A stretch of 64,000 nucleotides of DNA. Source: a virus. How positions within the stretch are numbered: position 1 is the first letter of the stretch; each line of letters starts with the position of its first letter. Where the stretch lies: positions 12,430 to 76,429 of the IMG/VR virus record IMGVR_UViG_3300025133_000069; one strand, given 5' to 3'. The notes under the pieces were generated by a model. It worked only from the letters and a program-made list of their open reading frames with translations. It was not told the DNA's origin and did not search any database. The position numbers were made by a program, and so were the translations under genes. Below, piece after piece: positions 656 through 32,013 of this stretch.

Positions 656-1123
656 ATGAAAATTACAAAAAGACAACTTCAACGAATTATTAAAGAAGAA
701 CTTGAAAAAGTTTTGAAAGAAGCCGAAAAAGGTTGGGCCGGCGGAATAGGTGATATTATCCGTCGTGGTCTCGAAGAACTTATAAAAATAGCACAAGGAT
801 TGACTCAGGCACTTAAAGCAGCATGTGCACAAAAAGATTTAATTTTAATGGCGGTTAACAATCCAAAGATGATTAAATTAATTGTTAGTACTGCTAACCC
901 AGCAGAGGCCGCGGCTGCAATTACTCTAGCTGCACAGGAGGCCGGCATTCCCGTACCGGGAGACGCGACGAAGGCTTTGACTATGGTGATTACAGAAATG
1001 AAGAAAGATACATTTTTCTGGGATCAGCTTGTAAAAGCCATGAAAGATGAAAGTGTACGTAAAACAGTAGTGGCCACTATTTCAGCAGCGTGCCCGAAAC
1101 CAACGACGGAGCCGGTACCATAA
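656..1123 (+). CDS. leader-tagged hypothetical protein (MKITKRQLQRIIKEEL)
   Basis: 155-aa ORF; N-terminal leader shared with 26448, 27163 and 27545. Confidence 0.85.
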   Translation: MKITKRQLQRIIKEELEKVLKEAEKGWAGGIGDIIRRGLEELIKIAQGLTQALKAACAQKDLILMAVNNPKMIKLIVSTANPAEAAAAITLAAQEAGIPVPGDATKALTMVITEMKKDTFFWDQLVKAMKDESVRKTVVATISAACPKPTTEPVP

Positions 1124-1151
1124 AAATAATCATTTTATAAAGGAGCAAAAA

Positions 1152-1427
1152 ATGAAAGTTACCAAAAATTACCTTAGACGATTAATTGAACAAGAATTAA
1201 GAAATATACATGAAGATGATGATGATCCTCTCTCTGCTGAGCCTGGTGGTCTCGGTGGTCTCGGTGGTGAGAAACCTTCATTACCGCCTGATGCTGGTGG
1301 GGTGGCTGAGCCAGAAACAGCAGAAGCAATGTTAGAGAAGGTTCATGCAGATCTTGAAAGGTGGTTGGGAGGCCATGGCGGCGATGTTTCACCAAGTACA
1401 GATGTAGAAGACGAAGACGAATTTTAA
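1152..1427 (+). CDS. leader-tagged small acidic protein (MKVTKNYLRRLIEQEL)
   Basis: AAGGAG RBS; leader motif; short GGTGGTCTC tandem repeat inside. Confidence 0.8.
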   Translation: MKVTKNYLRRLIEQELRNIHEDDDDPLSAEPGGLGGLGGEKPSLPPDAGGVAEPETAEAMLEKVHADLERWLGGHGGDVSPSTDVEDEDEF

Positions 1428-1433
1428 ATCAGT

Positions 1434-1745
1434 TCACCACCAACATTCTGAACTGATATATTCCCATTCACATGTATCCCAATAAAAGCACCACTCATAT
1501 TCACAAATCCAGGAATCTGAATGTTCTTGCTTCCAAACACAGCATTCCGCATTTGAATATGAATCGCAATAGCGCATGCCTGTTTCTAAAGGCAGAGGAT
1601 CATACATGCAATAGTCTACCACTATTGCAGCCTCTTCGTAATAAACTGGCGTATTATCATCAGGATCTGAGGGGACTAGTCTCAGAGTGCAGCTTGTTGC
1701 TAACAAACTTAGCATGCCTAGCATGCAAATAAATAAATTTTTCAT
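1434..1745 (-). CDS. putative Cys/Trp-rich lipoprotein
   Basis: Signal peptide with lipobox-like LATSC; Cys-rich mature part. Confidence 0.6.
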   Translation of the reverse strand: MKNLFICMLGMLSLLATSCTLRLVPSDPDDNTPVYYEEAAIVVDYCMYDPLPLETGMRYCDSYSNAECCVWKQEHSDSWICEYEWCFYWDTCEWEYISSECWW

Positions 1746-1803: not shown

Positions 1804-2565
1804 ATGAAATTATTATTCGAAAGCTGGCGTCAATTTATATCTGAAGAAGAATCACCGCGAATTATCGCTATTGGTGACAGTATTACAGCGATGAAAGGAT
1901 CTTATATTGATCTCTTGGGCGGCGAGAAGTTTGCTAAAGGAGGACAGACAAGCAGACAGCGTATACTTTTTAATAAAGTTAAAGATGCTACAGCTGGAAG
2001 GTCTGATTATCCAGATTATATAATTCTTTTTATGGGTACTAATAATATTGGTGCTGGCGATAGACGTTATGGTGCTAGATTCGCCAAGCCAGAAGACGAG
2101 AATCCAAAATTCGTTAGTGAGTTAATAGCTGATTTAGGGAAATATTATGGTTGGGCCAAAACTGGCTGTGCGTTTGAAGGGAAGACGTCAAGAGAAACGA
2201 AATGTATTCCACAAGACCATTCAGCTACAGTTATTGTATTGCCATTGTTTCCTGCTTATGATTATTGGTTTAAACGATATAATACGTTGAACGAGAAGAA
2301 GAAGATAAGGTATGCTGGTTGGGAACCTAATTTAATGATGAAAAATTTAAATAAAGTTAATCAAGCGATCGCTGAAATATCAGATATACCTATAAGCAAT
2401 GAATCAATGTTAGAAGTTGCTGTTAACTGGAAGGATGACGGAAGTGGTTTGGTAGGAAAAAACATCCAAGAACAATACAGAGGAAGAAAAGGCAATGATT
2501 ATATTCATCCCAACAAAGCAGGTCATGCAGCATTAAAAGCCCTAATTAAAGAGAGGCTGTTTTAA
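1804..2565 (+). CDS. SGNH/GDSL-family hydrolase with N-terminal leader
   Basis: Block I AIGDSIT, block III GTNN, block V DYIHP; leader MKLLFESWRQFISEE. Confidence 0.8.
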   Translation: MKLLFESWRQFISEEESPRIIAIGDSITAMKGSYIDLLGGEKFAKGGQTSRQRILFNKVKDATAGRSDYPDYIILFMGTNNIGAGDRRYGARFAKPEDENPKFVSELIADLGKYYGWAKTGCAFEGKTSRETKCIPQDHSATVIVLPLFPAYDYWFKRYNTLNEKKKIRYAGWEPNLMMKNLNKVNQAIAEISDIPISNESMLEVAVNWKDDGSGLVGKNIQEQYRGRKGNDYIHPNKAGHAALKALIKERLF

Positions 2566-2572
2566 TAATAAT

Positions 2573-5500
2573 ATGAAAAAAAGAACTATCACCAAATCTC
2601 AATTAGAAAATGTCATCTCTGAACGCTTGACTGGTCTATTGCAGGAAGAAAAAATAATTCCTGTAAAGAAAAGAACTATCACTAAGTCCCAATTAGAGAG
2701 CGTTATATCCGAACGTTTAACAAATCTCTTAAAAGAATCGAATCCTGTATTCAAAAATCCCGCCACAGGGCGTGTGAGGGGTGGGCGCACTGTGACGTCG
2801 GCCCGTGGCCTGGAGTTCGTCGAGGCTCACCTGACACACAGAGGGATTGCGCGCGGGCTCCAATTCGGAGTTAGTACAGAGGGACCACCCGAACAGTATT
2901 ATTTAAAGGGTAATAATCCCAAAGATTGGCATTGGCCAACTTTAACGAATCGTGATTATGAAAAAGCGCTGCAGGCGGCCCATGACTTCCTGGGCTTCGA
3001 ACCAATGCATGGAGAGGTTGGTCCCCATGGGGAGAAGCGCCGGATGATGCTCGCTGAAATGAGTTCGAAACAATATTGGACAAGAGTTGCAGCATTACAG
3101 GATAAATATGAAAAGATATTACGTGAACACTTTGAAAAACATCCACTTGTTATTAAAGATCCAGTTCTCCGTCTCGGGAAAACGGCGCCGAGCAAAGCTG
3201 CCAAGCGCGCGGCGAGGAGAAGACTTGCTAAGGCGGGGCTCGCAATTGAGAAGCCGGCATATCATGCAGCGCGAACAGGGGCTGAGCAGCTACCAGCGGT
3301 TAAACCGGGCCGCGGCCAACCAGCCAGCAAAGCTGAAATAAAGAAGATGACAATTCCCGAACTAAAAGCTAAGCTGACGGGTATGGATGAAACGACACTT
3401 GCAAAACATCAATTGTCAGCAGAAGAAATAGTTAATGAAAGAATTAAACGAATGTCTTTTGGCAGAGCAATAATTCAAGCAGATTCAGAGTGGATTGCAA
3501 CAAACTTTATGAAAACAAAAGTGCCTGTTATACCACCATTCTTTGAATTAATGAAACTTGAATCTGAATGGAAAATACGTGAATTTTATCGCGTCATGGG
3601 GAGCCGCGGTCAGCGGAAGGGACGTTTGGATCTGCGGCCGGGTGATATTCTTGAAAATAAAGTAGAAACGCTTCGAGACGCTATGCGTTGGCTTAGTGGA
3701 ATGGAAGAGATACCAGGGATGAAGGCCGGGATGACTGGAGAAAAATCCGCCATTGAATTAAGGAAAGAAATTTGGAAAGGTAATATATCTGGTGAGTTAG
3801 AAGAAACAAAGCGTCAAGATCGCCATGGCGCGCACAGGAGCGAAATAGAAAAACAGTTACACACACTTGAGAAGCAAACGAATGCACTTGAAAAAGAGCT
3901 GGGGTATAAGAAGGGTAAAATATGGGAAGAATTATTATTAGACTATAAAGAAACACCGGTAATAGAGAAAGAAACAAGAGGAGAGCGTCGAAAAAGAGGA
4001 TATCCAGAAAAGAAAGAAAAAAAAGGCACGCCCCAAGCAAAAAAGAAACTTCCAAGAAGAGTACGTACACTTGAACAACCAGGATGGCGTTATAGATCAG
4101 ACCTGAGATTTCACGCCACGGCTCCGACTGCCTCCCCTAGAGAAATGTGGTCACCAACTTTGCAACGCTCTCCTTCAGCTGAGCCTTCAATGCCTGGTAA
4201 AAGGTATTTTGGAAACGAACAATTCCAGATAATGACAGCCTTACGTTCTTTAGGTGATCCTATAATTTTACCAGATGAACTTTGGAATAATTTATATGGA
4301 GAAGGACCAATTTGGGGTGTTAAACTTCTAGGTACCCCGACGGAGCCGGTCCTGCGCGAAGAAGGATTATTTGGTAGATTTCCCAGTGGCCGCGGCTTGC
4401 CTGAAGAAATAATATCAGATTTAACATTTTGGAAAGATAATACGATATCAGAAAGTAAAGTTCGAGAACGTTTCAAACGTCTGCCTGAAGTGTTTGGTAC
4501 TTTAAGAGACCTTCGGATTGCGGCGCCACAGGCCTGGCTCCCGAAAAAAATTGCAGATGTAGTATCTCCCAGGGGTCGTGACCCGGGTAGGTATGTTACC
4601 GATAAAATAATAAATGAATTTATTGATGCGTATTCTTTGAACTTGGGAACAACAGGAACTTCTGATATTCTTATTAGTGAAGATGGAACTATAAGATTTC
4701 TTGATAAAAAAGGCCGTCTGTCCCCCACAAAAAAATTGACACGAGGGAAGAATTTATTACAAGGTAAATTACTAGAAGAAGTCGCAGATCTCATTGAAGA
4801 ATTACATAAAGAAAGTGTAGCCAAAATAACAAGAGAAGAAGTTGTAAAAGCAACCCCAAGAGAAGGTGACCACCTTCATTACCGTATTAACTTGGAGCGC
4901 GAACAGAGAGTCCGACCGACCTGGGGGGCAGGCGAGACGTTTGAGAGCAGGTATCCCGGTGGGAGCGCGCATCCGCCGCGAACTGATCGAGGTGCTGGTA
5001 TGCGTCCCAAATGGGAAAGATGGCATATAGGTGAACAGTATGTTCCAGATCTATTTCATGGAGAACGATTTGATATCGAAGGCACCACGGTCGGCGACCG
5101 GTCGTCGCGCCTGCAGCAGCTTTTGGCAATGCGAGGAGAAGATTCTGTTTGGGATGCTAAGCCATTAGAAAATTTCAAAAATGACCCACGTCTCGGGAAA
5201 CAACCTATAGGCCCCGATGGTAGGCCGATGGACTCCAACGCGTGGCATGATCAAGTGGTTTACCATTGGCCAGAGGAGGTGGCGGCCCGAAGAGCTCTGC
5301 GGGGCGCGGCTATAAACATGCGTAATAAGATACGTTATAGAGATGGGATCCCCCCGACGTCGGGGGGACGGCTCGTGATTGGTGCCAACTTACTTGAAGA
5401 AGCCAAGTTTGGACCAAGAGATATGAAATTAAAAGATGGCACAATTATATTCTTAGAAGATTATCTAATGCTAAAAGAAGGCGAGGGTATCTTGATGGGA

Positions 5501-8500
5501 GAATATGGGAAAAGATATGTTTATCCTATCCCCGTCAAAGCAAGGGAACACCACCCGGGAACCCAGCGTTGGGCAGAAAAAAACCTTCCCGATACTCCGT
5601 TGGCCCGGGCAAGGGCCCGGGCTATAGCCATAATAGGAGCAAATGCGTATGAAGGCGTTTATATGCCCTCCGGACCGTCTGGCGAAGGATCCCGTGTGGG
5701 CAACGCCTGGTACTTCGAGTCTGGCATGGAATCGTCGGTGTGGGAAACGAACCCTAACTGGATTGCGATTGAAGGTGATTCAACGTGGATGCACCAAGGC
5801 CAAATTGATAGGATTAAAAAACATATATTGGGAACTGAAAATGGTACGGCAAGATGGAATAGAGTAGAAAGGGATGTAGTACACTGGTTAAAGGATGGCA
5901 TACCAAGTTATATAAAAGAAGAGTGGGTTGAAACAAATAAAAAAATCATCTACCTCCACCGGCGCCGGCTGAGCACGGCGTACGGTCCGGACGTGGATCG
6001 TGGGCGCGTGAGACGCGAAGTTGTGAAACTGATCGGGGAGATAGAGAAGGGTGAGGGTCCAGGTGTCTTACGAGGCGCACAGATCAGTCCTATGACTCCC
6101 ACGTGGAAGGCACCGAATGGAGCATTGATCCACGCAGGATTTCGAGATGATATGTACGAACTTTTGGAACTATATGATCTTGAAAGTTCACATAAAATAG
6201 AAAAAGAGATTTTAACGCAAAAAGCATATAGTGACGCAATAAAAAATATGGAAAGACGTTGGCTTACTAATAACTTCAAAGAACAATCTGTATATTTTGG
6301 TGGTCAATCGCGAGCGGAGAAGAGTTTGGGGCGTGCGAGGTTTGAGGTTACCTTGAGCCCTGAGGCGCGTATTCTGTGGGTATTGCAAGATAGAGATTTA
6401 TTAGAAATTATAGAATTTATGAATGAAAATCCAGGGGAGCGTGTTTTCATACCTAGAATAGTACAACATTATTGGGGATCAGTTAGTACTTATCCTACAG
6501 GAAGAGCACTGCCAGAAGAAATATTAAATGATGTGAGGCTTTTAATCCATGATAAAATGACATCTGTTGAAGATGCCTTGCTACACACTGAACGGCGATG
6601 GGGTGGCGGCAAAACTACAAAAGAATGGAAGAACGATAAATTATGGGAAGAATATGTTAGAGAAAATATGCGCCTTGGAAGTAGGGGGTTTGGAGTTTGG
6701 CAAAAGGGTATTTGGGATCCCGAGACCGGTGATCCTGTATATGATGAGAAGGGTAAACAGAAATTTCGGCTAGAAGAAATTCATGATGAAGGCAAAGCTA
6801 AAAGAATAAAGAAGATTAATGAAGCAAGAGCGGAGAGACGGCGCGCAGCGGCGGAGAGACGGCGCCCGTCGCCCCAATCGCCGCGCCTCGACGTGACGTC
6901 CGGGCGTGGACTCGTACCTTCGGGTTTGCACGCGGAGCCCGTGCCCGGGTTTGGCGCGAGGTCTAATATAGTTTTGGCGACCGGCGAAATTGTGTCGGTA
7001 AATGTTGAATGGGCCCGGGAGTGGATTGAATCTGAATTATGGAAAAAATTAAACCCTGGTCGCGTGGAACCGCTCCTTAACCCCGTGGGGGAAGTGGAAA
7101 AAATGTATAATCAGCTTCTTCTTTATCCTGATTTGCCTGAGGGGGCAGCAAGAGTAGTACTCACTAACAAAGCTATAGCGGTTGAAGAACAAGTGTTGAT
7201 CAATTTGATGCAAGGCCATACGAGCAGAGAATTTCACTTATTAGAATTTGAAAAGATTCTACGTCGGGAAATGATTCCACAAGTAGAAGCTGGAAAAATT
7301 TCGCCGGCTAAAGCTGATGCTTTGGCGGCGAGATTGTCGCGACAGGCATGGGAAAAAGGCCTGAATCGTCATATAATCCAATTGGAAATTCGAGCGCGGT
7401 CGGAAGCTGGAGCGTATGAAAGTGCAGAAGCATTAATGGCAAGAATTAATAATTCTGGCAATATACCTCCTTCTGTAAAGAAGGCTCTTAAGGGGGTTAA
7501 AAAAACTTTGCCTCCAGCAATGTTTATTTTGATAGGATACGGCATGTGGGAGATTTGGTATGATCCTGGAGCTGATCTTACCGATGATGATACAGTTTTT
7601 GAAAAAATTAGGCAGACTTCAATTCTGTTGGATCCAACAATTTTTGGTGTTCAAGCAGTTACAGGTGTTGTTGACATATTATATGAAGACAATCCAGAAT
7701 GGCGCTGGGATGATCCGTGGCATCTTATTCCTGGACATATTCTTTGGAGTCGACTTGGCAAAATACGTGAACCGGAAGAAGCAAAACGAAAAAGTAGAGA
7801 ACACGCAGAGGCCGGCAAGGGCGTCCTCGATTGGGTTAGCAGGTATCGACCATGGTGGGGACAGCCGACAGGTCGAACGTTTGGAGGTGAGCATGCGCCT
7901 GGCGGGGCACATGTCCTGGGCCAGCATGATCGCTATGGTGGTATATCACCAGGTACATTAAAATTCTGTTTAGACCAACCAGATGATGGATGGTGTAAAG
8001 AATATGCACCAAATATATGGCCAGAATTTTGTTTGCAATATCCTGAGAGCGCAGAATGTAAAGATATCAAAGAGAAGATTAAGAATTATCGACAAGATAT
8101 ATTTGACAGATTTATGGATCCAATTAAAGAAAAAGCGCTAGAAGAATTAATAGGTGAACCATTTGAGCTTCCAGAAGATATATGTAAAGATGCAAAAGGA
8201 AGTACAGAAGAAGAGAAAAAGAAAGATTGTAAACGTCTTAAAAATTTAGCGTTCAAGCAACATCTTATGAAAGGTGTTTTTAAACAAATAGAACAAGATA
8301 AGGAACTCACACCTAAACGAGCATTTAAAAAACTATTAGATGAATGGACGTCTATGACCCTTGAAGGATGTAAAGATATTCCTGGCAATCCATGTAAAGC
8401 TGGATCTACCACATTACCCTTTAAGGATTGGGATGCCCGCGCGGCCAAAAAGAGATTGCCTAAACCTGTAGCTGAATTAGGACCTGAAGAAGAATTTGAA

Positions 8501-8860
8501 ATGACTTTCGAACCAGATCCAATGGTGCCTCAAGATTATGATCCTGATACAGGGAAACCGAAAGCTAGACCTAAACCATCAGAATATGATCCAAAGGGCA
8601 AGGAACAAATGAAACGTAGAAGACAAAGCATACAAAAATATAAAGAAGCAACAGTCAGAACGTTGGTTAAACGCATGTTAACAGGCGTTCGTGGAGCAGA
8701 GAGGGAAAAGAGAATAAAGCAAATAAAAGATTTGCAAAAAATTGACTTACCGTGGGATATGAAATGGCCAAGTAAACAGAGGTCCGTAAAAGAAAATCTT
8801 AATCTAGATATTGCAGAAATCGCAAAAATAATAATTGAAGAAACTAAAAAACTTTTCTAA
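2573..8860 (+). CDS. giant (2095 aa) leader-tagged hypothetical protein with GC-mosaic body
   Basis: Uninterrupted ORF; duplicated leader KKRTITKSQLExVISERLTxLLxE; hydrophobic helix near 7510-7560; no recognisable catalytic domain. Confidence 0.8.
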   Translation: MKKRTITKSQLENVISERLTGLLQEEKIIPVKKRTITKSQLESVISERLTNLLKESNPVFKNPATGRVRGGRTVTSARGLEFVEAHLTHRGIARGLQFGVSTEGPPEQYYLKGNNPKDWHWPTLTNRDYEKALQAAHDFLGFEPMHGEVGPHGEKRRMMLAEMSSKQYWTRVAALQDKYEKILREHFEKHPLVIKDPVLRLGKTAPSKAAKRAARRRLAKAGLAIEKPAYHAARTGAEQLPAVKPGRGQPASKAEIKKMTIPELKAKLTGMDETTLAKHQLSAEEIVNERIKRMSFGRAIIQADSEWIATNFMKTKVPVIPPFFELMKLESEWKIREFYRVMGSRGQRKGRLDLRPGDILENKVETLRDAMRWLSGMEEIPGMKAGMTGEKSAIELRKEIWKGNISGELEETKRQDRHGAHRSEIEKQLHTLEKQTNALEKELGYKKGKIWEELLLDYKETPVIEKETRGERRKRGYPEKKEKKGTPQAKKKLPRRVRTLEQPGWRYRSDLRFHATAPTASPREMWSPTLQRSPSAEPSMPGKRYFGNEQFQIMTALRSLGDPIILPDELWNNLYGEGPIWGVKLLGTPTEPVLREEGLFGRFPSGRGLPEEIISDLTFWKDNTISESKVRERFKRLPEVFGTLRDLRIAAPQAWLPKKIADVVSPRGRDPGRYVTDKIINEFIDAYSLNLGTTGTSDILISEDGTIRFLDKKGRLSPTKKLTRGKNLLQGKLLEEVADLIEELHKESVAKITREEVVKATPREGDHLHYRINLEREQRVRPTWGAGETFESRYPGGSAHPPRTDRGAGMRPKWERWHIGEQYVPDLFHGERFDIEGTTVGDRSSRLQQLLAMRGEDSVWDAKPLENFKNDPRLGKQPIGPDGRPMDSNAWHDQVVYHWPEEVAARRALRGAAINMRNKIRYRDGIPPTSGGRLVIGANLLEEAKFGPRDMKLKDGTIIFLEDYLMLKEGEGILMGEYGKRYVYPIPVKAREHHPGTQRWAEKNLPDTPLARARARAIAIIGANAYEGVYMPSGPSGEGSRVGNAWYFESGMESSVWETNPNWIAIEGDSTWMHQGQIDRIKKHILGTENGTARWNRVERDVVHWLKDGIPSYIKEEWVETNKKIIYLHRRRLSTAYGPDVDRGRVRREVVKLIGEIEKGEGPGVLRGAQISPMTPTWKAPNGALIHAGFRDDMYELLELYDLESSHKIEKEILTQKAYSDAIKNMERRWLTNNFKEQSVYFGGQSRAEKSLGRARFEVTLSPEARILWVLQDRDLLEIIEFMNENPGERVFIPRIVQHYWGSVSTYPTGRALPEEILNDVRLLIHDKMTSVEDALLHTERRWGGGKTTKEWKNDKLWEEYVRENMRLGSRGFGVWQKGIWDPETGDPVYDEKGKQKFRLEEIHDEGKAKRIKKINEARAERRRAAAERRRPSPQSPRLDVTSGRGLVPSGLHAEPVPGFGARSNIVLATGEIVSVNVEWAREWIESELWKKLNPGRVEPLLNPVGEVEKMYNQLLLYPDLPEGAARVVLTNKAIAVEEQVLINLMQGHTSREFHLLEFEKILRREMIPQVEAGKISPAKADALAARLSRQAWEKGLNRHIIQLEIRARSEAGAYESAEALMARINNSGNIPPSVKKALKGVKKTLPPAMFILIGYGMWEIWYDPGADLTDDDTVFEKIRQTSILLDPTIFGVQAVTGVVDILYEDNPEWRWDDPWHLIPGHILWSRLGKIREPEEAKRKSREHAEAGKGVLDWVSRYRPWWGQPTGRTFGGEHAPGGAHVLGQHDRYGGISPGTLKFCLDQPDDGWCKEYAPNIWPEFCLQYPESAECKDIKEKIKNYRQDIFDRFMDPIKEKALEELIGEPFELPEDICKDAKGSTEEEKKKDCKRLKNLAFKQHLMKGVFKQIEQDKELTPKRAFKKLLDEWTSMTLEGCKDIPGNPCKAGSTTLPFKDWDARAAKKRLPKPVAELGPEEEFEMTFEPDPMVPQDYDPDTGKPKARPKPSEYDPKGKEQMKRRRQSIQKYKEATVRTLVKRMLTGVRGAEREKRIKQIKDLQKIDLPWDMKWPSKQRSVKENLNLDIAEIAKIIIEETKKLF

Positions 8861-9612: not shown

Positions 9613-9905
9613 AAATAGGTTTTCGAAAATACGACGATGGTTTAAAAAATAAAATCTTTCTTGATAATAAACTTATCGGTGAAGTAGGACTAAACATTTG
9701 GAATCAAAAATGGAAGATGACTCCATATTTTAGTTTTAGTCCGATGGAACAAGGAATTTTATATTCTGAATATGGATCCTGTTATAAAGCAGGGAAAGCT
9801 TTAGTAAAATTATATTCTGATACTTATATGGTATTTGAAGAAGACGATTTAGATGATACGCAAGAGATAGATATGAGGAGTATAATTAAACGTCGTCGTC
9901 CGTGA
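9609..9905 (+). CDS. hypothetical protein
   Basis: 98-aa ORF translationally coupled to its neighbours. Confidence 0.7.
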   Translation: MKIGFRKYDDGLKNKIFLDNKLIGEVGLNIWNQKWKMTPYFSFSPMEQGILYSEYGSCYKAGKALVKLYSDTYMVFEEDDLDDTQEIDMRSIIKRRRP

Positions 9906-9916
9906 GGATTCAAAGT

Positions 9917-11812
9917 ATGAAAAAAATAGCGCTAGCTTTTATGATATTTACTTTTTTGCAAATCGGTTGCAGCAATGTAGAACAAGGAGCTGGTTCTAAT
10001 GATTTAGATGTTGCGGAAGATATCTCTGAAGATGTACACAAAGAAGAAATAGTTATTGTACCTTGGGAAGAAGAGGAACCCGAACCAGATCCAGAATGTA
10101 TTGACTGTGCAATGTATTTCTGTCCTCCATTAGATGCAATTTGGAGAAAAGAAATATGCATGAATATATGCGATGATCCTCCTACACTTTACTCTGAATC
10201 TGAATGCATACAATATATGGAGTGTGATCCAACGCAATATCTTATTGACGAAGTTGAATGTATGACTGAAGATGGATATCCTGGTACCCAAGAAAAGGTT
10301 TGTAATAAAGGGTTAATACAATATACAGACTGTACTACTGCCTGTGAAGAAGAGTTGTGTAATTATGAAGACGACGACTGTGACGGTGAGATTGACGAAG
10401 GACAATTAAACGACTGTAACGAATGTGGGATTGTTCCTACAGAAGAATGTAATGGCGTCGATGATAATTGTGATGGGGATACAGACGAAGATTTAATTCA
10501 ACCCTGCATCACAGCATGCGGTGCGGGATATGAAATGTGTTATGAGGGCAATTGGATATCTTGTACGGCGCCGCCGGAGAGTGATGAGATATGTGATGGC
10601 TTGGACAATGATTGTGATGGTCAAATAGACGAAAACTTAGATTGTGTATGTACCATACAAGATATTGGAGTGTTGTTTCCATGTCAAGATGATCCTCTTA
10701 TATGTGGTCAAGGATATAAAACTTGTCAGTGTTTAGACCCTGATTGTATAGATCTTGTAATGACAGAATGTTATGCTTTGTGTTACTGGGCGCCTTCTGG
10801 CGATCCAAACGCTGTTTGTGACCCACTGATTGGTATGGAATTAGCACAGGAAAAATGTAATAATTTTGATGATAATTGTAATCAAGAGATTGATGAAGAT
10901 CTTTATGGCGCTTGCTACACAGGGCCAGAAGGCACCCTTATGGTTGGTATTTGTGTTCCTGGAGAGATGACTTGTGATGCTGGGACTTGGGGAAATTATG
11001 ATGAGGAAAATTTTATTCCATATTATTGTAAAGATGAAATAGTACCTCAAGATGAAATATGTAATGGATTAGATGATGATTGTGACGGTATAGCAGACTG
11101 GGGTGAAGAGATGAAAGAGACCGATGTCCTCTTCATCGTTGATTGGTCTGGATCGATGGGTGATGAGATGAGCGCTGTTATGATAGCATTAAATCAGTTT
11201 GCACAAAATTTCAGCGATGAGGATGTTATTAAGTGGGCATTTATGCGGGGCCCAGTGGCCGTGTTACCTTCAACTTATGATGAACGTTTGGAGCTAATAC
11301 AAGATTTAATTGGATTTTCTGATTATTTAGTTTCATTAGCTGGAATGGATACCAGCATGCAATCAATGAGTACTGCTTACGAGATGTTATTGGACGCGAT
11401 TTATATATCAGTCCATAATATAACAGCTACGTTACCACAACCTATCTCCAATTTTGTTTGGCCCGGGGCAGCTAACTTTGGTACAAGTGTAATTGAATCG
11501 GAGCCTCCATTACAAAATTTCGATATCAGTTGGCGTTCGGGGGCTGATCGCATCATCATTGTTTTTAGTGACGAAGTACCGCAAAGTTATTTAGAACCAA
11601 ATTTAAGTATAGAAGAAGTCAAAACAGCTGTTTCCGGGACACCTCAACTTAAATTATTTACATTTTCTAGGACGTCCGGGTCGTCCCAGTGGGAAGATAT
11701 AGCTGTTGCCGGCAATGGCGCTTGGTACAAACTTACAAATAATCCTACAGAAATGTATGCTAGCTTAATGGAAATTCTTGATGAAATATGTAAAGGTGAT
11801 ACAAATGAATAA
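9917..11812 (+). CDS. lipoprotein with MopE-related Cys/Asp repeats and C-terminal vWA domain
   Basis: Lipobox LQIGC; repeats ELCNYEDDDCDGEIDE, EECNGVDDNCDGDTDE, EICDGLDNDCDGQIDE, EKCNNFDDNCNQEIDE, EICNGLDDDCDG; MIDAS motif DWSGSM and later FSDE. Likely start is the ATG at 9917 (track gives 9902). Confidence 0.85.
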   Translation: MKKIALAFMIFTFLQIGCSNVEQGAGSNDLDVAEDISEDVHKEEIVIVPWEEEEPEPDPECIDCAMYFCPPLDAIWRKEICMNICDDPPTLYSESECIQYMECDPTQYLIDEVECMTEDGYPGTQEKVCNKGLIQYTDCTTACEEELCNYEDDDCDGEIDEGQLNDCNECGIVPTEECNGVDDNCDGDTDEDLIQPCITACGAGYEMCYEGNWISCTAPPESDEICDGLDNDCDGQIDENLDCVCTIQDIGVLFPCQDDPLICGQGYKTCQCLDPDCIDLVMTECYALCYWAPSGDPNAVCDPLIGMELAQEKCNNFDDNCNQEIDEDLYGACYTGPEGTLMVGICVPGEMTCDAGTWGNYDEENFIPYYCKDEIVPQDEICNGLDDDCDGIADWGEEMKETDVLFIVDWSGSMGDEMSAVMIALNQFAQNFSDEDVIKWAFMRGPVAVLPSTYDERLELIQDLIGFSDYLVSLAGMDTSMQSMSTAYEMLLDAIYISVHNITATLPQPISNFVWPGAANFGTSVIESEPPLQNFDISWRSGADRIIIVFSDEVPQSYLEPNLSIEEVKTAVSGTPQLKLFTFSRTSGSSQWEDIAVAGNGAWYKLTNNPTEMYASLMEILDEICKGDTNE

Positions 11813-12940: not shown

Positions 12941-15112
12941 ATGAAATCATATCACGATAATTGGCGTAATTTTTTAACAGAGGCGACCCCAATAAGACAA
13001 GACGATGGCGGTCCTGTCATGGTGGATAGTAGTTCGCTAGAGGAAGGCAGATATACTGCTGAAGCCTTGACGAGAGTGGCCGAAGACACAGGGGTTAACC
13101 CAGCCTGGCTATGGGGCTTAATGGGCGCGGAATCAGGCGGCGGTAGAGGTAAATTTAGAGGTGGAAAATGTCAGGCGCGCGCATTCAATAATTATTTGCT
13201 TAAAGATCGCTGGGTGACGTACGAAAGTGGAAAGCGCGTTTTTAAAAGAGGCTATACCACCATATATAATGAAGATATTAAAGCCGTAAGAAATGCCGGC
13301 GTGAGAACTCGTGGTCAAACTTATGGTGATTCTCGCAAAGATCGATCTGCCGATTCACAGTTTCATAAATGTTTTAAAGTTGCGCCCAAGAGCGCAATTG
13401 CGGTTGCTGCCTGGGGCGCCAATCAAGTAATGGGTTTCAACATTAAAGAAATGTGGGAAAATGACCCACAAGGCTTCTATGATCGATGGTATGGTAACAA
13501 TGGAGCAAACCAGTGTGCGATGAGTGAAGAAGCAAGTAGGGTTTATAATGCAGCGCCGCGGCGGAATGCGAAGCTTCAGAGATACTCTAATAATGCTGTT
13601 TTTGGGGGAATCAATGGTGCATATAGAAGTTGGCAGAGCATTGTACAAATATATCATGGGTCATCGCCCGGAAGTGAAAAAAATACAAGATATGTAAGTT
13701 CGGCCAGAAAAGCAGCAAAACAATTTATAGCAAAGTTCCCCAACCAGATGAGACAGTGGTGGAAAGATCGTGGCAAAAGCGAAGAAGAAATCAATACTTT
13801 TTTCAGAAGATGGAGGGTTAATCCCGGCGAGGCCTCAGTTGCAACACCAGCTTCTCCAGAATTGCCAATTGAGCCTGTATCAGAAATCAAACATAGAAAA
13901 ATTCTTGTAATTGGTGATTCCAACACAGCTCGTATGAAAGCAGCTCTAACCCAAAAATATGGCGGGGATCCAAATACTGAAATAAAAGTTTGGGGCAGGG
14001 GTGTTGAAGATGGTGTGGCTACAACGACGAAATATATCTATAAAAATATAAAAGATCCAAATTCTAAATTAAAAAAACTCATTAATAACTTTAATCCAAC
14101 TCATATTGTTATAGGTTCATTAGGTGGAAATGATTGGGCATATGCTTGTCCCGGTCGAGAAGAGACACTACAAAGTTATATTAAAAATTATGTAAAACCA
14201 CTTATGATATATATTAAAGCGCACAATGGATCATGGGGGGGTTTACCGCCGGCTGGGCCGGAGGCGACAAGAAAGTGTAAAGGTAAGTCTATACTTTTTC
14301 AACCAATGAGGGCTAAAATTAATGATAGATATAAACAAGTTGCAGAAGACATAGGCTTAGAATATCGCGATGTTATAGGTTCAGGCTTTTTCAATCCTCC
14401 AGGTGATAAATATCATATTCCACAAAAAAAGTGGATAGACTATTTTAAAGATAATACTCTTGTGAGAAAAAAAATAAAAAAGAAATTCCCATTACGTTTA
14501 GATGTACCTGGTACAATTGTAGTTAAAACACATCCTCCACATGGAACTTCATGGGAAAGACCCTTCCCAGAAAAAGGATTACCATGGGGCATGAAGTGGC
14601 CTGAAGATCAAATCAACTTAGATATATCACAAATAGATGATTTCGAAGTAGCTTGTCATTTCTGGAACAATCCTGAACATGAAAGTTTCTGGGGTTTTAC
14701 AAATTATAAAAAGAAAGGTATGATTCTTAACAGAGAAGATCCATATGGTGAGATCCATGATGCGATAGAGGAATTATGGGAAGAGGCGATCGCTAGTGTA
14801 ACTGAAGATTGCCCTGAAGGTACAAACTGCCGCGTTGATACAACTCCCTGGGTCACTAAACAAATTAACAAACGTATTAAAAGAGGTGATTTAGAAAGTC
14901 CCGTAATTACTCATTGGAAGACAGAAGATATTATTGAACTTTTTAATAAAACAAGAAGTCGTTATCCAACACGCTGGAAGCCTTGGTTTAAAGCAGGAAT
15001 GTGTGATGGCGACTATGAATCAAAAATTAAAAGTCTTCTCGACCAAGAAGAAATAGAAGAGAGAGAAAGAGAAAAACACCGAAAACTATTCCGGCGTATG
15101 ATGAACCGATAA
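12941..15112 (+). CDS. leader-tagged N-acetylmuramidase-like (DUF3380 type) + SGNH multidomain protein
   Basis: Leader MKSYHDNWRNFLTE; muramidase-like AESGG...AAWGANQVMGFN...YHG; SGNH motifs ILVIGDSN, SLGGND, DKYH. Confidence 0.7.
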   Translation: MKSYHDNWRNFLTEATPIRQDDGGPVMVDSSSLEEGRYTAEALTRVAEDTGVNPAWLWGLMGAESGGGRGKFRGGKCQARAFNNYLLKDRWVTYESGKRVFKRGYTTIYNEDIKAVRNAGVRTRGQTYGDSRKDRSADSQFHKCFKVAPKSAIAVAAWGANQVMGFNIKEMWENDPQGFYDRWYGNNGANQCAMSEEASRVYNAAPRRNAKLQRYSNNAVFGGINGAYRSWQSIVQIYHGSSPGSEKNTRYVSSARKAAKQFIAKFPNQMRQWWKDRGKSEEEINTFFRRWRVNPGEASVATPASPELPIEPVSEIKHRKILVIGDSNTARMKAALTQKYGGDPNTEIKVWGRGVEDGVATTTKYIYKNIKDPNSKLKKLINNFNPTHIVIGSLGGNDWAYACPGREETLQSYIKNYVKPLMIYIKAHNGSWGGLPPAGPEATRKCKGKSILFQPMRAKINDRYKQVAEDIGLEYRDVIGSGFFNPPGDKYHIPQKKWIDYFKDNTLVRKKIKKKFPLRLDVPGTIVVKTHPPHGTSWERPFPEKGLPWGMKWPEDQINLDISQIDDFEVACHFWNNPEHESFWGFTNYKKKGMILNREDPYGEIHDAIEELWEEAIASVTEDCPEGTNCRVDTTPWVTKQINKRIKRGDLESPVITHWKTEDIIELFNKTRSRYPTRWKPWFKAGMCDGDYESKIKSLLDQEEIEEREREKHRKLFRRMMNR

Positions 15113-26447: not shown

Positions 26448-27146
26448 ATGAAAATAACAAAATCACAATTAAAACAAATTATTAAAGAAGAACTGAAAAG
26501 TGTTTTAAGTGAACAATTGCCACGTCGCTCGGCTGAGCGCCGGCGACAAGACCGCGAGAAGTTTAAAAAGTGTCTTAAGACTTTCAATCCTGAAAAAGAA
26601 GGTACTAATTTTTCGTATGAAAATATAGCTTTAAATCTTAAAATGGCTTTAATCCTTAATGATCTTAGAACATCGACGAACAGCGGAAAATCTCTCAAAA
26701 AATGGAAAATTGATCCGTTAATAAGTTTAAATCCCGGGCATGTTGAAGAAATTAAAGAACGTTATATAGAAATGCGTTGTCAGGATCCTGATCAGAGTCC
26801 TGCTAGAGTTCGAAGAAGGGCTGGTGCAATTGGTGGCGATAGTAGCTTTTTTAGGGACCAGAGCAGTGGCCTGGGTGCTGGCGTGCGGCGATTTCATAAG
26901 GGCCCGCTGTCGCGCGGGTCCATAACTAATATTTTTGATGGTTTTGGGGATCCCGGCGGATATTCGCCTTTGAGAGATGAGCTTAACGATCTTCTAGAAA
27001 AAACAGGTGCATGGAAAAAAATGCGCATGGATGACCCTGTACGTAAACAATATAAAAATTGGATTCAAACAAGATTAGGGCGATGTGAAAAGGGGGGTGG
27101 AAAAACCCTCCCAGATGGTAGTTGTTCGAAAGATGTAGTGCATTAA
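26448..27146 (+). CDS. leader-tagged cassette protein 1 (MKITKSQLKQIIKEEL)
   Basis: ACTAATTATT at 26417 and GAGGGG RBS put the start at 26448, not 26409. Confidence 0.85.
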   Translation: MKITKSQLKQIIKEELKSVLSEQLPRRSAERRRQDREKFKKCLKTFNPEKEGTNFSYENIALNLKMALILNDLRTSTNSGKSLKKWKIDPLISLNPGHVEEIKERYIEMRCQDPDQSPARVRRRAGAIGGDSSFFRDQSSGLGAGVRRFHKGPLSRGSITNIFDGFGDPGGYSPLRDELNDLLEKTGAWKKMRMDDPVRKQYKNWIQTRLGRCEKGGGKTLPDGSCSKDVVH

Positions 27147-27162: not shown

Positions 27163-27525
27163 ATGAAAATCACAAAATCACAATTAAAACAAATTATTAA
27201 AGAAGAGCTGGAAAGTGTTAAGATACACGAGCGGAAGGCGAAAGCAGGAGAGGAATACGGTGACTTCGTCGTCGTCAAAACAGTCGACGGGGGTACAGCC
27301 GCGGTCCGCAAGGATGTTTATAAATATTTTGGCCCTATTTCTACTATACTTCCGACTGACACGCTTATGAATGCTTTAGAACAGGCTATGAAAAAAAATA
27401 ATATTCCTTTAGATATCGTCGGTTCCGGGGTTGGTAGAATAGGTGCGGACTCGGGCGGCAGATTCACGTTTAAATTTAGTGTAGATCTCGAACCTGCCAA
27501 ACTGCCGGCCCCAGAAGAAAAATAA
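27163..27525 (+). CDS. leader-tagged cassette protein 2
   Basis: GGAGGT RBS; leader near-identical in DNA to 26448 and 27545. Confidence 0.85.
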   Translation: MKITKSQLKQIIKEELESVKIHERKAKAGEEYGDFVVVKTVDGGTAAVRKDVYKYFGPISTILPTDTLMNALEQAMKKNNIPLDIVGSGVGRIGADSGGRFTFKFSVDLEPAKLPAPEEK

Positions 27526-27544: not shown

Positions 27545-27799
27545 ATGAAAATCACAAAATCACAATTAAAACAAATTATTAAAGAAGAGATGGAAAGTGT
27601 CTTAAAAGAACAAGAGGTGCTGCGAGGGGCGAGAATAACGAAGAAGAAACAAGACGGGGACTATTGGATTGTAACTGTGTGTCTAAGAGACACTTGTGCA
27701 GAAGGAAAAGCAAAAGGAGCTACTACCAGCATCGCGATCCGCGCGGCCGAGCAGAAGGCCCGGACTAATTTGTTAAAGAAACTAAAGGGAAATGACTAA
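27545..27799 (+). CDS. leader-tagged cassette protein 3
   Basis: Leader near-identical in DNA to 27163; unrelated body. Confidence 0.85.
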   Translation: MKITKSQLKQIIKEEMESVLKEQEVLRGARITKKKQDGDYWIVTVCLRDTCAEGKAKGATTSIAIRAAEQKARTNLLKKLKGND

Positions 27800-27802
27800 T
27801 AC

Positions 27803-28151
27803 GGGGGTGAACTGGTATCGACTGAGTATTGAAAATATAACGTGCAAGGCTGTGATGAGTGAAGGCACAGCATAAAACACTCAAAATTTAAACGCCAACG
27901 ATAACGTTGAGTTTGATTACGCCCTAGCGGCGTAGTCATGGGGAATGACGAGAGCCTTATTAACCAAAGACTGTTCATCGATGGTTTTCTTCGGAAAGTA
28001 GATGTAAGAGGGTTTTTCCAAGTTAGGCCCATAGGATAAACTTGGTGGTGCGCGGTGCGAGTTTGTCAGAGTTCATAAACTGACTAACCTTGTGAATGAC
28101 GTTGTATTAGAAATATTCAGGACCCGGGTTCGACTCCCGGCACCTCCACCA
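27803..28151 (+). ncRNA. ssrA: tmRNA, tag peptide (A)ANDNVEFDYALAA encoded at 27894-27935
   Basis: 5' GGGGGTG pairs with 3' CACCTCC-ACCA with a G3:U alanine wobble; T-arm CCGGG-TTCGACT-CCCGG; tag ORF ends in ALAA-stop. Confidence 0.95.
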
Positions 28152-29255
28152 ACTATTTAATAATATGCAGAAACTATTTGAAAATTGGCGGAGATTCGTA
28201 GAAGAAGACAATAAAGCTTTAGAATCTAAAATACGCGCGGCATTAGCTGAAGAAGGCGGCGCTGCTGATATGGAAACATTGAAAGAGTATACTGGAGCGA
28301 CCGAGGAAGAAATCAAATCTGCCATGGGGGATTGGGAGGGCATAGAAGAGCATCCGGGATCGTCTGACTTTAGAAAAAATATTTTATTAGAAGGCCAACG
28401 CGAAAATCTTCCAGAATGGTTTAAAGAGTGGCTTGGGGATTTTCTAGAAAAAGATTTAGATGCACCTGGCGCGAAAGAATATTTTCGTAATAGGTCGGCA
28501 CCTATGCCGCCGGCGACGGATCTTGAAGGATATCGTGGAAGAGGAGGAGGCTTCCCCGCGCGATGGGACCGACCGCCGATTCCGCCGATCCACGCGAGTA
28601 GCACGGGCCGGCAGGCGCCGCATTTGGATCTGCAGGGCCGGCCAAAGGCGCCGGGCGAGCAGAGGTGGCGGCGATGGGCTGACCGAGCGCTCGGGCTTCC
28701 ACCTCATCCTGAACCTGTCGCCGGTGCTGGCCATCGCGCAGTGCCTGCTAGCCGGCGAGAGCTTCGATCTGCGCACAACAAGAACAAAAGTAGATTAGTA
28801 AATGATATTAGAAGAGAAGCCACGATTATAGAAAAAGCTGTTCCAAGACGTCCCGGGGCCTTTAAACAATTTTTGCAAAAAGCTAGGAATATTCCATTTT
28901 TAGGTAATTTTTTCAAACTTGCACTTCTTGGGTATGTAGGTACTGATATTCTAACTAGAGCTGATAATGCGTATGCTAGCCAGGGAGTAATAGGAGTATC
29001 TAAAACTATAGCAGAAGAAAGTCTTTTATTTTTACCTAGCTATATAGAAATAAGCTTAATAGCTTCTGCGTTGGAAGAGGCATTCCCAGATATTGTGTTC
29101 CCAGGAAAATGGAAACGTGATAAATATTGGAAGTCTTCAAAATATGATGTTGAAGATTATCCCGGTGGATCAGAAGAAGAAACACCTGAAGAAGACGTGG
29201 GGCCTCTACCAGATGTATAATAGAGATAACGTGACACCAACTATTTATTAATATG
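28147..29255 (+). repeat. 21-bp direct repeat CACCAACTATTTA(A/T)TAATATG at 28147 and 29235
   Basis: One mismatch; comprises the tmRNA 3' CACCA, the promoter motif and an ATG. Confidence 0.8.
28165..29220 (+). CDS. leader-tagged hypothetical protein with GC-rich central patch and hydrophobic C-terminal helices
   Basis: Leader MQKLFENWRRFVEE; EEGGAA motif; GC-rich ~28490-28775; IPFLGNFFKLALLGYVG. Confidence 0.8.
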   Translation: MQKLFENWRRFVEEDNKALESKIRAALAEEGGAADMETLKEYTGATEEEIKSAMGDWEGIEEHPGSSDFRKNILLEGQRENLPEWFKEWLGDFLEKDLDAPGAKEYFRNRSAPMPPATDLEGYRGRGGGFPARWDRPPIPPIHASSTGRQAPHLDLQGRPKAPGEQRWRRWADRALGLPPHPEPVAGAGHRAVPASRRELRSAHNKNKSRLVNDIRREATIIEKAVPRRPGAFKQFLQKARNIPFLGNFFKLALLGYVGTDILTRADNAYASQGVIGVSKTIAEESLLFLPSYIEISLIASALEEAFPDIVFPGKWKRDKYWKSSKYDVEDYPGGSEEETPEEDVGPLPDV

Positions 29256-29405
29256 AAACTTGATTTTAAAACACTAATTACTTTACTAACTATAGCGGCT
29301 ACTTTAGGTGGATTTTATTATACAACACAAGCAAGATTAGATAGTCTAGAGCAAGAAGTTACAAAATTGCAAAAACAAGTTAAAAGGGTAACTAGGAAAA
29401 AGTAA
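29253..29405 (+). CDS. small single-TM coiled-coil protein (MKLDFKTLITLLTIAATLGGFYY...)
   Basis: 50 aa; preceded by ACTATTTATT; stop abuts the next ATG. Confidence 0.65.
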   Translation: MKLDFKTLITLLTIAATLGGFYYTTQARLDSLEQEVTKLQKQVKRVTRKK

Positions 29406-29723
29406 ATGAAGAATTTATTCGAAAATTGGCAAAATTATTTACAAGAAGATAGTGAAGAAAAAACGGATAAACCAAAAGTAGTATGTAACTGTCTTTGTAC
29501 TGATTGTATTTTTAATAAAAGTGAACAATGTATAACTGAAGAAATTAATCTAGATTTTGCACAAACGAAACAAGGTAAATGGATATGTGAATGTTTGACT
29601 TATGAGGTTGATGAAGGAAAAGAAAAAGGCCCAGAAGATTCTACTGTGCGTGGAAGAGAAGAAGTAGATGAATCTGCTTGGTCAGGTTCTGGACCGTTAA
29701 AAGAACCAATTGAAGAAATGTGA
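29406..29723 (+). CDS. leader-tagged small Cys-rich protein
   Basis: Leader MKNLFENWQNYLQE; CNCLCTDC..N...C...CECLTY (possibly DUF1540-like). Confidence 0.75.
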   Translation: MKNLFENWQNYLQEDSEEKTDKPKVVCNCLCTDCIFNKSEQCITEEINLDFAQTKQGKWICECLTYEVDEGKEKGPEDSTVRGREEVDESAWSGSGPLKEPIEEM

Positions 29724-29757
29724 CCAGACAATGATTCCTAGTTAAGGATATTTATTA

Positions 29758-32013
29758 ATGAAAGAAATATATGAAAATTGGAGATTGTTTACTGAAGCAG
29801 CAGATCCTTTAAGTGACGCCGAAATTGTTAAAGCGTTTCAAAAACTAGATATTGTTGCTGATATAGATCTGCCATCGGCCGATGCGCCGGAAGAGGTCTG
29901 GGGGAGATACGGGCGCTCGGGGACCCCGGAAGCTCGCGAAGAACTTTCCCGTGTTGCCCGACGTTTTTTAGATCAAGGAACACCAAAAATAAGAATTCTT
30001 GAACTAGCACATCGCAGTGGACTTCGTCGATGGTTATTAAAAGATCTTGCAACGGAACTTGGTGTGCCACTGGAGGCGCTTCAGACTCGTCAGTTTGCCG
30101 ACGACAAGGTGATGCCCAAGAGCAAGCGCGCAAAAAGACGGCGAAGGAAGGGCCTGTCAAAAAAGGAGATGTTGCGTCTTCCTGATATAGAGGATCCTTT
30201 TTTTGATATACCAGAAGCAGAGAGAGAATACTTAGAAGTATTACATGGGGCGCCAGGTGAAGCGCCCGATGGATGGATTCGAGCGGGAAGTCCTTCACAT
30301 ATGACACAGGATCCTGGTCGGTTTTTGGAAACGATACGAAGGGATGTAGCAGATCTTTCTGGCGGTAGCAATCTTTTTAATCCCGATGAAGATTACCTTT
30401 ATTATAATTATAAGACTAAAAAGATTGCCATTGCTAAAGCACATCCAGAAGTTAGAGGAATAATTGTGCTACCAGATAATATAAGATGGGATTATAATAC
30501 TGGAAGATGGTCTGGTACTGTCAGTATAGAGACGTTAACAGATTGGGTGCCTGAATATATACCAAAAGAACACAATCCTCTTTGGACAGGCGCAGTTGAT
30601 ACGCGTATCAATATGCCTGAAGTTCATGAACCTAGGCCAGGTTGGGGACGTGGTCCGGAGCTGGATCACCTGGATGATCCTGGGTCGAAAAGATGGACAG
30701 AAGTCAAAGAGAGATATGTCCCTAAAGATTATGAAGTCGGAGATAGTTATGAGACGGAGGCTCAAAGAAATGAACGTCTTATCAGAAATGAAGAACTAGG
30801 TCCAGAGCATGCAAGACTTGCACAAGACGAGCGCGCACGTGCCGAACTGCTGGCGGAGCAATCTCTAGATGATTCCAGGCTTCGAGCCAGTTTAGATAAA
30901 AAAGAAAAAAAACTTTTTAATAAAAGCTTCAAGAAGTTTGTTAAAAAAACCAAAGATGTCGGTCAAGCTGAGAGCATGGCCCTCCAGGCTATTCGTACAA
31001 GAAGAAAGCTAATAGCTGATTTAGAAAAGATGCCATTTCTTCCAAAGAGTATGAAAACGTTGATCTCGATGGGCAAACGAACACTCCTGATTTTAGCAAT
31101 TATACTCACGCTCTCAGGGGTCTGGATAGCTATAGATTGGAAGAGTTTCATGAAGTACGGTCCGCCGGGGTGGATTGCGTTTCTACTTGGAGCCGTATGG
31201 GAAGCGATAGTTGGCATAGAATGGAGCACGTGGGTACAATCAAATGGTGTTAAACCACCTGAAACTCTTGAAGAAATGAAAGCAATGTTAGATCGCGAAT
31301 TGCATCCAGATCAAAAAGCAGAACTTAGAGATATAGCACTAGCAGGTATAGGCACTAGTCTCACAGTAGGTTTAGTTGATCTTGCTGATGTAACCGCTAC
31401 CATACAAGTAGAAGAAGCGCTTAAGGATTTTCGATTCAAATGGTCTCTATGGAATGCACAGATTGGTAGAGAAAACAAAAAATTCATGATCCTCGATCCG
31501 AAAGATTATCATCGCAGCGAGGTGATCGCTTCTCCAACCGCTAAAGATCCACGTGGTTTTACAACACCTGATAAAACAACAGAACTTAAATTACAATGTG
31601 CAGAACATCAAAGATTTAAAATTAGAACTTTACCTAGAGTCAAAGATATGGTACGTCTTGGAATTGTCCCTACTCCAGAACTGATCGATCTGGCTAGTAA
31701 GGTTGGTTATCGTTATGAAGGTAGCAACGCTGATGGTTCTCCAGCTTGGAGAGGTATACCTCCGGATAGCCCGGGCGCTAAATCCTGCAAAGAATTAGCA
31801 AAGAGAGGTATACCGGTGCCTGTACCAGGTAAATGGATGGGGCCTGAAGATCCGATAAGATCTACACCTGGACCTAGGCCAGAAGACACACGATTGCATG
31901 AAAACATTAAACATAAAGTAATTAAATTAAAAATTTTAAAAGAACGTAAAGTAGCTGAACATAAAGTAATTAAATTGAAAATTATAAAAGAACGTAAGAA
32001 ATATAAGAAATAA
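29758..32013 (+). CDS. leader-tagged hypothetical protein with TM hairpin and duplicated basic tail
   Basis: Leader MKEIYENWRLFTE; TM segments LLILAIILTLSGVWIAI and GWIAFLLGAVWEAIVG; tail HKVIKLKI(L/I)KERK twice. Confidence 0.8.
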   Translation: MKEIYENWRLFTEAADPLSDAEIVKAFQKLDIVADIDLPSADAPEEVWGRYGRSGTPEAREELSRVARRFLDQGTPKIRILELAHRSGLRRWLLKDLATELGVPLEALQTRQFADDKVMPKSKRAKRRRRKGLSKKEMLRLPDIEDPFFDIPEAEREYLEVLHGAPGEAPDGWIRAGSPSHMTQDPGRFLETIRRDVADLSGGSNLFNPDEDYLYYNYKTKKIAIAKAHPEVRGIIVLPDNIRWDYNTGRWSGTVSIETLTDWVPEYIPKEHNPLWTGAVDTRINMPEVHEPRPGWGRGPELDHLDDPGSKRWTEVKERYVPKDYEVGDSYETEAQRNERLIRNEELGPEHARLAQDERARAELLAEQSLDDSRLRASLDKKEKKLFNKSFKKFVKKTKDVGQAESMALQAIRTRRKLIADLEKMPFLPKSMKTLISMGKRTLLILAIILTLSGVWIAIDWKSFMKYGPPGWIAFLLGAVWEAIVGIEWSTWVQSNGVKPPETLEEMKAMLDRELHPDQKAELRDIALAGIGTSLTVGLVDLADVTATIQVEEALKDFRFKWSLWNAQIGRENKKFMILDPKDYHRSEVIASPTAKDPRGFTTPDKTTELKLQCAEHQRFKIRTLPRVKDMVRLGIVPTPELIDLASKVGYRYEGSNADGSPAWRGIPPDSPGAKSCKELAKRGIPVPVPGKWMGPEDPIRSTPGPRPEDTRLHENIKHKVIKLKILKERKVAEHKVIKLKIIKERKKYKK
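31910..31997 (+). repeat. 48-bp-period duplication encoding HKVIKLKIxKERK
   Basis: Copies start at 31910 and 31958. Confidence 0.85.

Follow-up and report, generated by a model that had tools for sequence, protein, structure and literature searches.

Why should sixteen proteins with mutually unrelated bodies begin with one or the other of two short shared peptides? The question is raised by a 64,000-nt stretch of DNA (the window, by which we mean the whole stretch analyzed), which covers positions 12430-76429 of a single 76,429-bp viral contig, IMG/VR record IMGVR_UViG_3300025133_000069. The contig belongs to an uncultured marine T4-type phage and is 42% complete according to CheckV, the whole phage being roughly 180 kb. 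A first-pass annotation of the window had noticed two kinds of N-terminal leaders, type A and type B, and had proposed that they are a portable packaging signal loading many cargo proteins into the phage head for injection. Our analysis indicates that the two leaders are probably capsid-targeting sequences (CTSs) of a distant T4-type phage and constitute two new tag classes. By analogy to the CTS of T4, the tags most likely bring proteins into the phage head and are subsequently removed.

The contig contains 16 tagged genes, nine of type A and seven of type B, which together encode 7259 residues (about 28% of the contig) in proteins of 84 to 2095 amino acids (aa). The type A leader starts with MKITK, has IIKEE in positions 11-15 and extends to about residue 22; the type B leader has a Met-Lys start, the core LFENW in positions 4-8 and its end at Glu14. 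Eleven tagged genes lie entirely within the window (Table 1), and the translations of their open reading frames (ORFs) contain all six type A and all five type B leaders that had been read there in the first-pass annotation. Five more tagged genes start upstream of the window, at genome positions 5831 (a variant), 8016 and 9832 (type A), 6618 and 11110 (type B).

These assignments are based on leader profiles made from environmental copies alone, with this genome excluded. The type A profile matches type A genes of the contig with E-values from 4e-13 to 1e-3, and the type B profile matches five contig genes with E-values from 8e-8 to 7e-5, the genes at 12941 and 29758 being weaker type B variants (E 0.16 and 1.5). 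No match to the type A profile at E <= 10 is seen for the gene at 2573, whose first residues deviate from the type A start and which was assigned to this type by eye. Two further "weaker variants" proposed in the first-pass annotation, at 15707 and 24697, were rejected, since neither profile matches them at E <= 10.

The position of the tags is strictly N-terminal, and all tagged genes are on the plus strand. A loose pattern that does not include the Met has 13 matches on the contig, and 13/13 are located immediately behind a start Met, all on the plus strand. Consistent with the initial observation, neither the loose pattern nor the profiles find a tag on any replication or metabolic gene of the contig, the block from purA to the sigma factor gene being free of them. 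The unrelatedness of the bodies is confirmed as well: the best hit in the all-against-all BLASTP comparison of leader-less proteins has E 0.019 over 25 residues. The 590-aa type A protein (L145:8016-9788, genome coordinates) has a second, internal type A-like segment in positions 258-270, and this, like the double tag of the 2095-aa protein, suggests a fusion of two tagged genes.

The shared starts could, in principle, be a feature of the DNA, a handle for recombination or an element for translation initiation, with the encoded peptide playing no part. The genes at 26448, 27163 and 27545, standing in tandem, are almost identical in their first 45 nt, synonymous sites included, as such an element would be. 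However, this explanation is contradicted by 177 environmental copies of the tag, in which the residues are invariant and the synonymous codons vary freely, with all three Ile codons and six Leu codons in use at invariant residues. Hence, selection acts on the peptide and not on an RNA or DNA element, and a purely DNA-level origin is scarcely credible; a role in recombination may be added to the selection on the peptide, not substituted for it.

The search for degenerate DNA patterns in IMG/VR yields at least 120 loci for type A and at least 120 for type B, often with 2-5 tandem tag copies, and among the type A loci listed, 10 also contain type B genes. Five complete genomes have 7, 12, 6, 11 and 16 tagged genes, located on one strand per genome, and the reversed-pattern control in complete genomes gives zero matches. 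Only 8 contigs match in 596 Gb of bacterial and archaeal genomes; all of them belong to metagenome bins, into which phage contigs seem to have been mis-sorted. The contigs NHDW01000006.1 (305.8 kb; L265, L270, L272) and PBIO01000025.1 (101.4 kb; L266, L269), with 6 and 5 type A tags, are filed under bacterial bins (Methylococcaceae TMED69 and Halobacteriovorax sp. SP2999, respectively), and as both are probably mis-binned phage contigs, they provide no evidence of the host. No match was obtained when 50,697 GenBank phage records were searched by tblastn with a tagged protein or with just the leader, and the pattern search gave one match with two mismatches in the uncultured huge phage LR756508. 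These tags are not described in any paper found by a literature search for the tag string and for internal proteins of marine T4-like phages.

The end of the leader is as characteristic as its start, all 16 leaders of the contig terminating in hydrophobic-x-Glu. In type A, where positions 16-32 were free of any constraint from the search pattern, the environmental logo shows [LI] in position 16, [VLI] in position 19, L in position 20 and E in position 22; after Glu22 conservation is at background, with mild enrichment of G, D, E and P and no conserved residue. Among environmental type A copies, 65% have [LIVM]-x-E ending in positions 20-24; in control windows taken from these proteins the share is 2-12%. 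The conserved part of type B extends as far as Glu14, with L, I or V in position 12 of most copies, both positions having been fixed by the search pattern.

At the level of the sequence pattern, these ends match the cleavage sites of the T4 prohead protease gp21. The T4 internal proteins IPII and IPIII start with the 10-residue leader MKTYQEFIAE, ending in I-A-E and followed by A, gp24 has an L-R-E end at residue 10, and gp23 an F-L-T-E end at residue 65; at all these points gp21 is known to cleave (PMC9958956 for the propeptide lengths). The leader of the gene at 12941 ends in F-L-T-E followed by A, as at the gp23 cleavage site. In the T4 CTS, residues 4 and 7 are responsible for targeting, and residues 8 and 10 for processing (PMC9026906). 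The tags resemble this sequence at the pattern level only, sharing the Met-Lys start, an aromatic or hydrophobic pair and the hydrophobic-x-Glu end. The first-pass annotation had described the leaders as amphipathic and Glu-terminated: the Glu end is present in 16/16 leaders, while amphipathicity is only modest, the helical hydrophobic moment compared to shuffled sequences giving p of about 0.04 for type B and 0.07-0.2 for type A.

With their conserved leaders and hypervariable remaining parts, the small genes in tandem also look like precursor arrays of ribosomally made modified peptides (RiPPs), so the tags might be taken for RiPP leader peptides or for secretion signals. This is very improbable, since the leaders carry charges along their whole length (mean hydrophobicity about -0.4 to 0.04) and have neither the hydrophobic core of Sec or lipoprotein signals nor a double-Gly site, no modifying-enzyme family is found in Pfam scans of the contig, and the tagged proteins, folded enzymes among them, reach 2095 aa here and 900 aa elsewhere.

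The tags are associated with genomes that encode a gp21-type protease. Counted over tag-bearing contigs alone, Peptidase_S77 (the gp21 family) is present in 35/53 (5/5, 21/32 and 9/16), including 13/13 genomes at least 90% complete, every S77-negative contig being at most 68% complete. A gp23-type capsid protein is encoded in 8/8 tag-bearing genomes tested. Thus, the gp21-like protease that the first-pass annotation expected elsewhere is indeed found, both in these genomes and in two relatives of the phage considered here, G006 (E 5.6e-33) and the complete G041 (E 4.5e-35). The relatives G006 and G007 share with the contig a syntenic stretch comprising the type B block, purA, phoH, glycosyltransferases, the sigma factor, the 1232-aa and 464-aa proteins and a giant ORF (62% and 54% identity). 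The 1232-aa protein is 62% identical to its G006 homologue, and beyond the syntenic stretch G006 has tail genes, terminase, portal and the S77 protease. In G041 (180.7 kb), the homologue of the 1232-aa protein is full-length with 31% identity, and the head module is arranged as in G006, the genome containing the protease, gp23 and both tags. The nearest cultured phages, Flavobacterium phage immuto, Mel-JY01 and RM378, show 42-52% identity in the protease or the capsid protein.

Moreover, tagged genes are found inside the head modules. In G055, a type A gene is located immediately downstream of the protease gene, in G053 a type B gene lies just upstream of it, and in G004 three type A genes follow the capsid gene. 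All head modules examined also contain, downstream of the protease, a small conserved protein of 120-148 aa with no named family (Table 1), its N-terminus bearing the LKQ[LI]IK core of type A. A gene similar to that of ribosomal protein S21 (PHROG 21469, E 6e-8) is located inside the head module as well (L140:5198-5479, with counterparts in L274, L275, L276 and L128).

Two other explanations retain the peptide and give it a different role. One is a docking peptide that is not cleaved and holds the diverse proteins at another shared location in the virion, e.g. the capsid surface, neck or tail. Tailspikes, for instance, are attached through common N-terminal anchor modules; this modular architecture is identical, and the tagged genes are indeed close to structural modules. 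However, an anchor module of the known kind is a domain of about 100 residues, compared to 14-22 residues here, conservation ends exactly at the protease-type hydrophobic-x-Glu and is followed by a variable stretch, and neither the 84-aa cargo nor the enzymes resemble fibres, so we consider an uncleaved anchor unlikely. The other is an N-terminal helix unrelated to the virion, serving in oligomerization, as a recognition site of a phage chaperone or as a signal that sends the normally expressed protein to a host structure. The peptide is short, charged and partly amphipathic, as such a helix would be, and the contig has a weak Cpn10 match, but the link with the gp21 protease, the Glu-terminated boundary and the location of tagged genes in head modules would then have no explanation, which makes this role quite improbable. 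Each of the rivals leaves the association with the protease, the Glu-terminated boundary or the codon data unexplained.

The bodies behind the tags are almost all unnamed after sequence searches in Pfam, PHROGs and PDB and one ESM Atlas look-up. One exception is the gene at 1804, with a complete GDSL/SGNH domain (PF00657, E 3.6e-8) from residue 20, five residues separating Glu14 of the tag from the first catalytic-domain strand; the word-based search for homologues of this protein returned only a near-identical fragment. The gene at 12941 has a weak muramidase-like segment (PF11860, E 2.8e-4, below the cut-off). The 2095-aa protein, with leader copies in positions 1-25 and 32-56, has no Pfam or PDB relative. 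For the 84-aa protein (27545), the word-based search gives 1349 metagenome proteins with common 5-residue words, 70 of them at E <= 1; these align mostly to the initial quarter to half of it, are without a Pfam family and, with a single exception, go by the source name "hypothetical protein".

The portability of the tag is borne out not only by the unrelated bodies of tagged proteins but also by the varied N-termini in front of related ones. In homologues of the 12941 body, the N-terminus is this tag variant, another short sequence or a signal peptide, or is missing, and elsewhere this body is also embedded in proteins of 1100-1500 aa. In the syntenic block of G007 there are four type B genes. 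Two of them are orthologues of the genes at 29406 (58% identical, with the same tag) and 29758 (25% identical), and the other two resemble this genome in the first 11-18 residues only; in the position of the gene at 28165, the bodies in G007 are different. In G007, two cargo bodies are replaced and the tag is kept.

According to the mechanism we propose, the leader would dock its protein on the scaffolding core during prohead building, and the prohead protease of the gp21 family would then cut after the Glu of the terminal hydrophobic-x-Glu site, i.e. after Glu14 in type B and after Glu22 in type A, with Glu14 as a second candidate. The mature cargo would stay beside the DNA inside the head and, most likely, enter the host at infection. 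The cargo set would comprise the products of the 16 genes, the GDSL esterase-lipase and the muramidase-like protein among them, turning over between related phages with the tag kept. Every computationally testable part of the packaging-signal proposal held; docking, presence in the virion, cleavage and injection are what we infer. The precedent is provided by the T4 CTS and the diverse internal proteins of T-even phages, at whose loci the CTS alone is conserved (PMC3012670, PMC9026906), and the CTS has been considered as perhaps a general device of T4-like phages (PMC9026906).

As in the case of the T4 CTS, which IPI, IPII, IPIII and Alt carry and which is removed by gp21, the leaders described here are short, located at the extreme N-terminus, end in hydrophobic-x-Glu and are common to otherwise unrelated, non-essential, fast-turning-over proteins; the leader-coding DNA is nearly identical among neighbouring genes, and the lineage has a gp21-family protease and a gp23-type capsid protein. 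On the other hand, the leaders differ from the T4 CTS in sequence and are longer (14 and 22 residues compared to 10), and there are two tag classes in one genome. The number of cargo genes is 16 in 42% of the genome, compared to 3-4 in T4, and the cargo, of up to 2095 aa, includes enzymes and one tandem double tag. Finally, these phages are uncultured, the nearest cultured relative showing only 42-45% identity in the protease and the capsid protein, and the system is predicted from sequence. The giant phages phiKZ, 201phi2-1 and SPN3US also have N-terminal propeptides thought to target proteins to the prohead and cut after Glu by a related protease, and the SPN3US paralogues gp53 and gp54 have an identical 15-residue N-terminus (PMC5694885). 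However, these propeptides are mostly 80-130 residues or longer, have a small residue (A, S or G) in position P3 and are common to paralogues rather than to unrelated proteins. Encapsulin cargo-loading peptides are similar in being short, portable and able to bring unrelated enzymes into an HK97-fold shell, but they are usually C-terminal and retained, act without scaffold or protease, and serve a cellular compartment, not a virion.

Several observations weigh against the interpretation of the tags as capsid-targeting sequences. The contig itself, being 42% complete and lacking the head module, has neither the S77 protease nor head genes. T4 IPII and IPIII are matched by neither tag profile at E <= 10, and by pattern no tag is found in T4, Flavobacterium phage immuto, S-RSM4, P-RSM6, Mel-JY01 or RM378. 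The 2095-aa cargo exceeds in size every T4 internal protein known to us. The promoter-like box found upstream of nine tagged genes (see below) is assignable to neither early nor late expression, so late co-expression with the head genes is unsupported. Lastly, the likeness of the small head-module protein to type A in the LKQ[LI]IK core is weak (E 0.005-0.03 in 2/5 genomes); judged by this core, the protein could be a partner in the prohead core or an ancestor of the type A tag.

The two tags could constitute a two-channel address code, with each tag docking on a different partner in the prohead core; we regard this as possible and rather doubtful. Type A could mimic the N-terminus of the small head-module protein, and type B could mimic the N-terminal propeptide of the protease. 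The protease N-termini of this clade (L128:1426-2043, L274:5758-6393, L275:5835-6488) have the motif KLL[RK]EY[FY], and both they and T4 gp21 (gene 21 in L139; LLIE, then TW) start loosely like type B, the likeness of protease N-termini to the type B profile being not significant. T4 gp21 cleaves itself after residue 9 (PMC9958956). If the code exists, two cargo pools could be loaded with separate stoichiometry, position or ejection order, and over a quarter of the fragment, including the double-tagged 2095-aa protein, would be an arsenal of injected effectors.

Table 1. Tagged genes and other features. Coordinates are those of the window unless another sequence is named; E, E-value of the match to the tag profile.
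Feature	Coordinates	Leader	Strand	Remarks
Type B gene, 3' part	1..582		+	633 aa, starts at genome 11110; type B profile E 6.7e-5; leader end L-S-E at residue 18
Type A gene, 155 aa	656..1123	656-721	+	E 6.8e-12; candidate sites I-K-E14 and L-K-E22
Type A gene, 91 aa	1152..1427	1152-1214	+	E 7.9e-6; end I-H-E21, then acidic run
Type B GDSL/SGNH esterase-lipase, 253 aa	1804..2565	1804-1845	+	E 7.9e-8; end I-S-E14
Giant protein, 2095 aa, type A by eye	2573..8860	2573-2647, 2666-2740	+	tandem leaders, each ending L-x-E
Type B (variant) protein, 723 aa, muramidase-like segment	12941..15112	12941-12982	+	E 0.16; end F-L-T-E, then A
Type A gene, 232 aa	26448..27146	26448-26513	+	E 3.9e-13
Type A gene, 120 aa	27163..27525	27163-27231	+	E 1.9e-12
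Type A gene, 84 aa	27545..27799	27545-27610	+	E 1.5e-12
Type B gene, 351 aa	28165..29220	28165-28206	+	E 4.9e-7
Type B Cys-rich gene, 105 aa	29406..29723	29406-29447	+	E 9.2e-7
Type B (variant) gene, 751 aa	29758..32013	29758-29796	+	E 1.5
Small head-module protein	L140:4815-5201, L141:4393-4839, L128:2045-2419, L274:6394-6756, L275:7548-7967
ACTA[ATG]TTA box, examples	619, 1779, 12914, 26417, 28152, 29240		+
Cys-rich lipoprotein	9902-11812			MopE-type repeats
tmRNA	27803-28151			tag ANDNVEFDYALAA
tRNA-Ile(TAT)	32832-32907
tRNA-Lys(CTT)	33931-34006
Trypsin-like peptidase	34757-35572		-	lipoprotein-type signal
Giant ORF, > 3286 aa	54138-64000			continues past the contig end
Weak Cpn10 match	genome 4259-4525

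Several other features of the contig should be mentioned. The box ACTA[ATG]TTA occurs 20 times on the plus strand of the whole contig (17 of these within the window) and three times on the minus strand; it is located 12-37 nt upstream of nine tagged genes and also precedes a few untagged ones. Several boxes are just 12-13 nt from the ATG, which suggests that the 5' leaders of these transcripts are very short or absent. A transfer-messenger RNA (tmRNA) gene lies between the type A and type B cassettes, and in G007 a tmRNA start is found at the corresponding place; genes for two tRNAs are located further downstream. The giant ORF has no Pfam family, and its homologue in G006 and G007, of 3199 aa, is followed by tail-like genes. 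The Cys-rich lipoprotein gene, located between the cargo blocks, and the gene of the trypsin-like peptidase, the sole sizeable minus-strand gene, are untagged.

If the tags are indeed packaging signals, a motif of 14 or 22 residues would be sufficient to spot head-carried, and probably injected, proteins of uncultured ocean T4-type phages. In T4, this class of proteins includes anti-restriction and host-takeover factors. Many unnamed metagenome proteins without a Pfam family would thus become a searchable set of candidate early effectors, and the leaders would provide new natural tags for protein packaging in phage-based delivery. To our knowledge, the CTS principle has so far been demonstrated experimentally in T-even phages only; if our interpretation is true, it works, with larger cargo sets, throughout an abundant, deep branch of the T4 superfamily.

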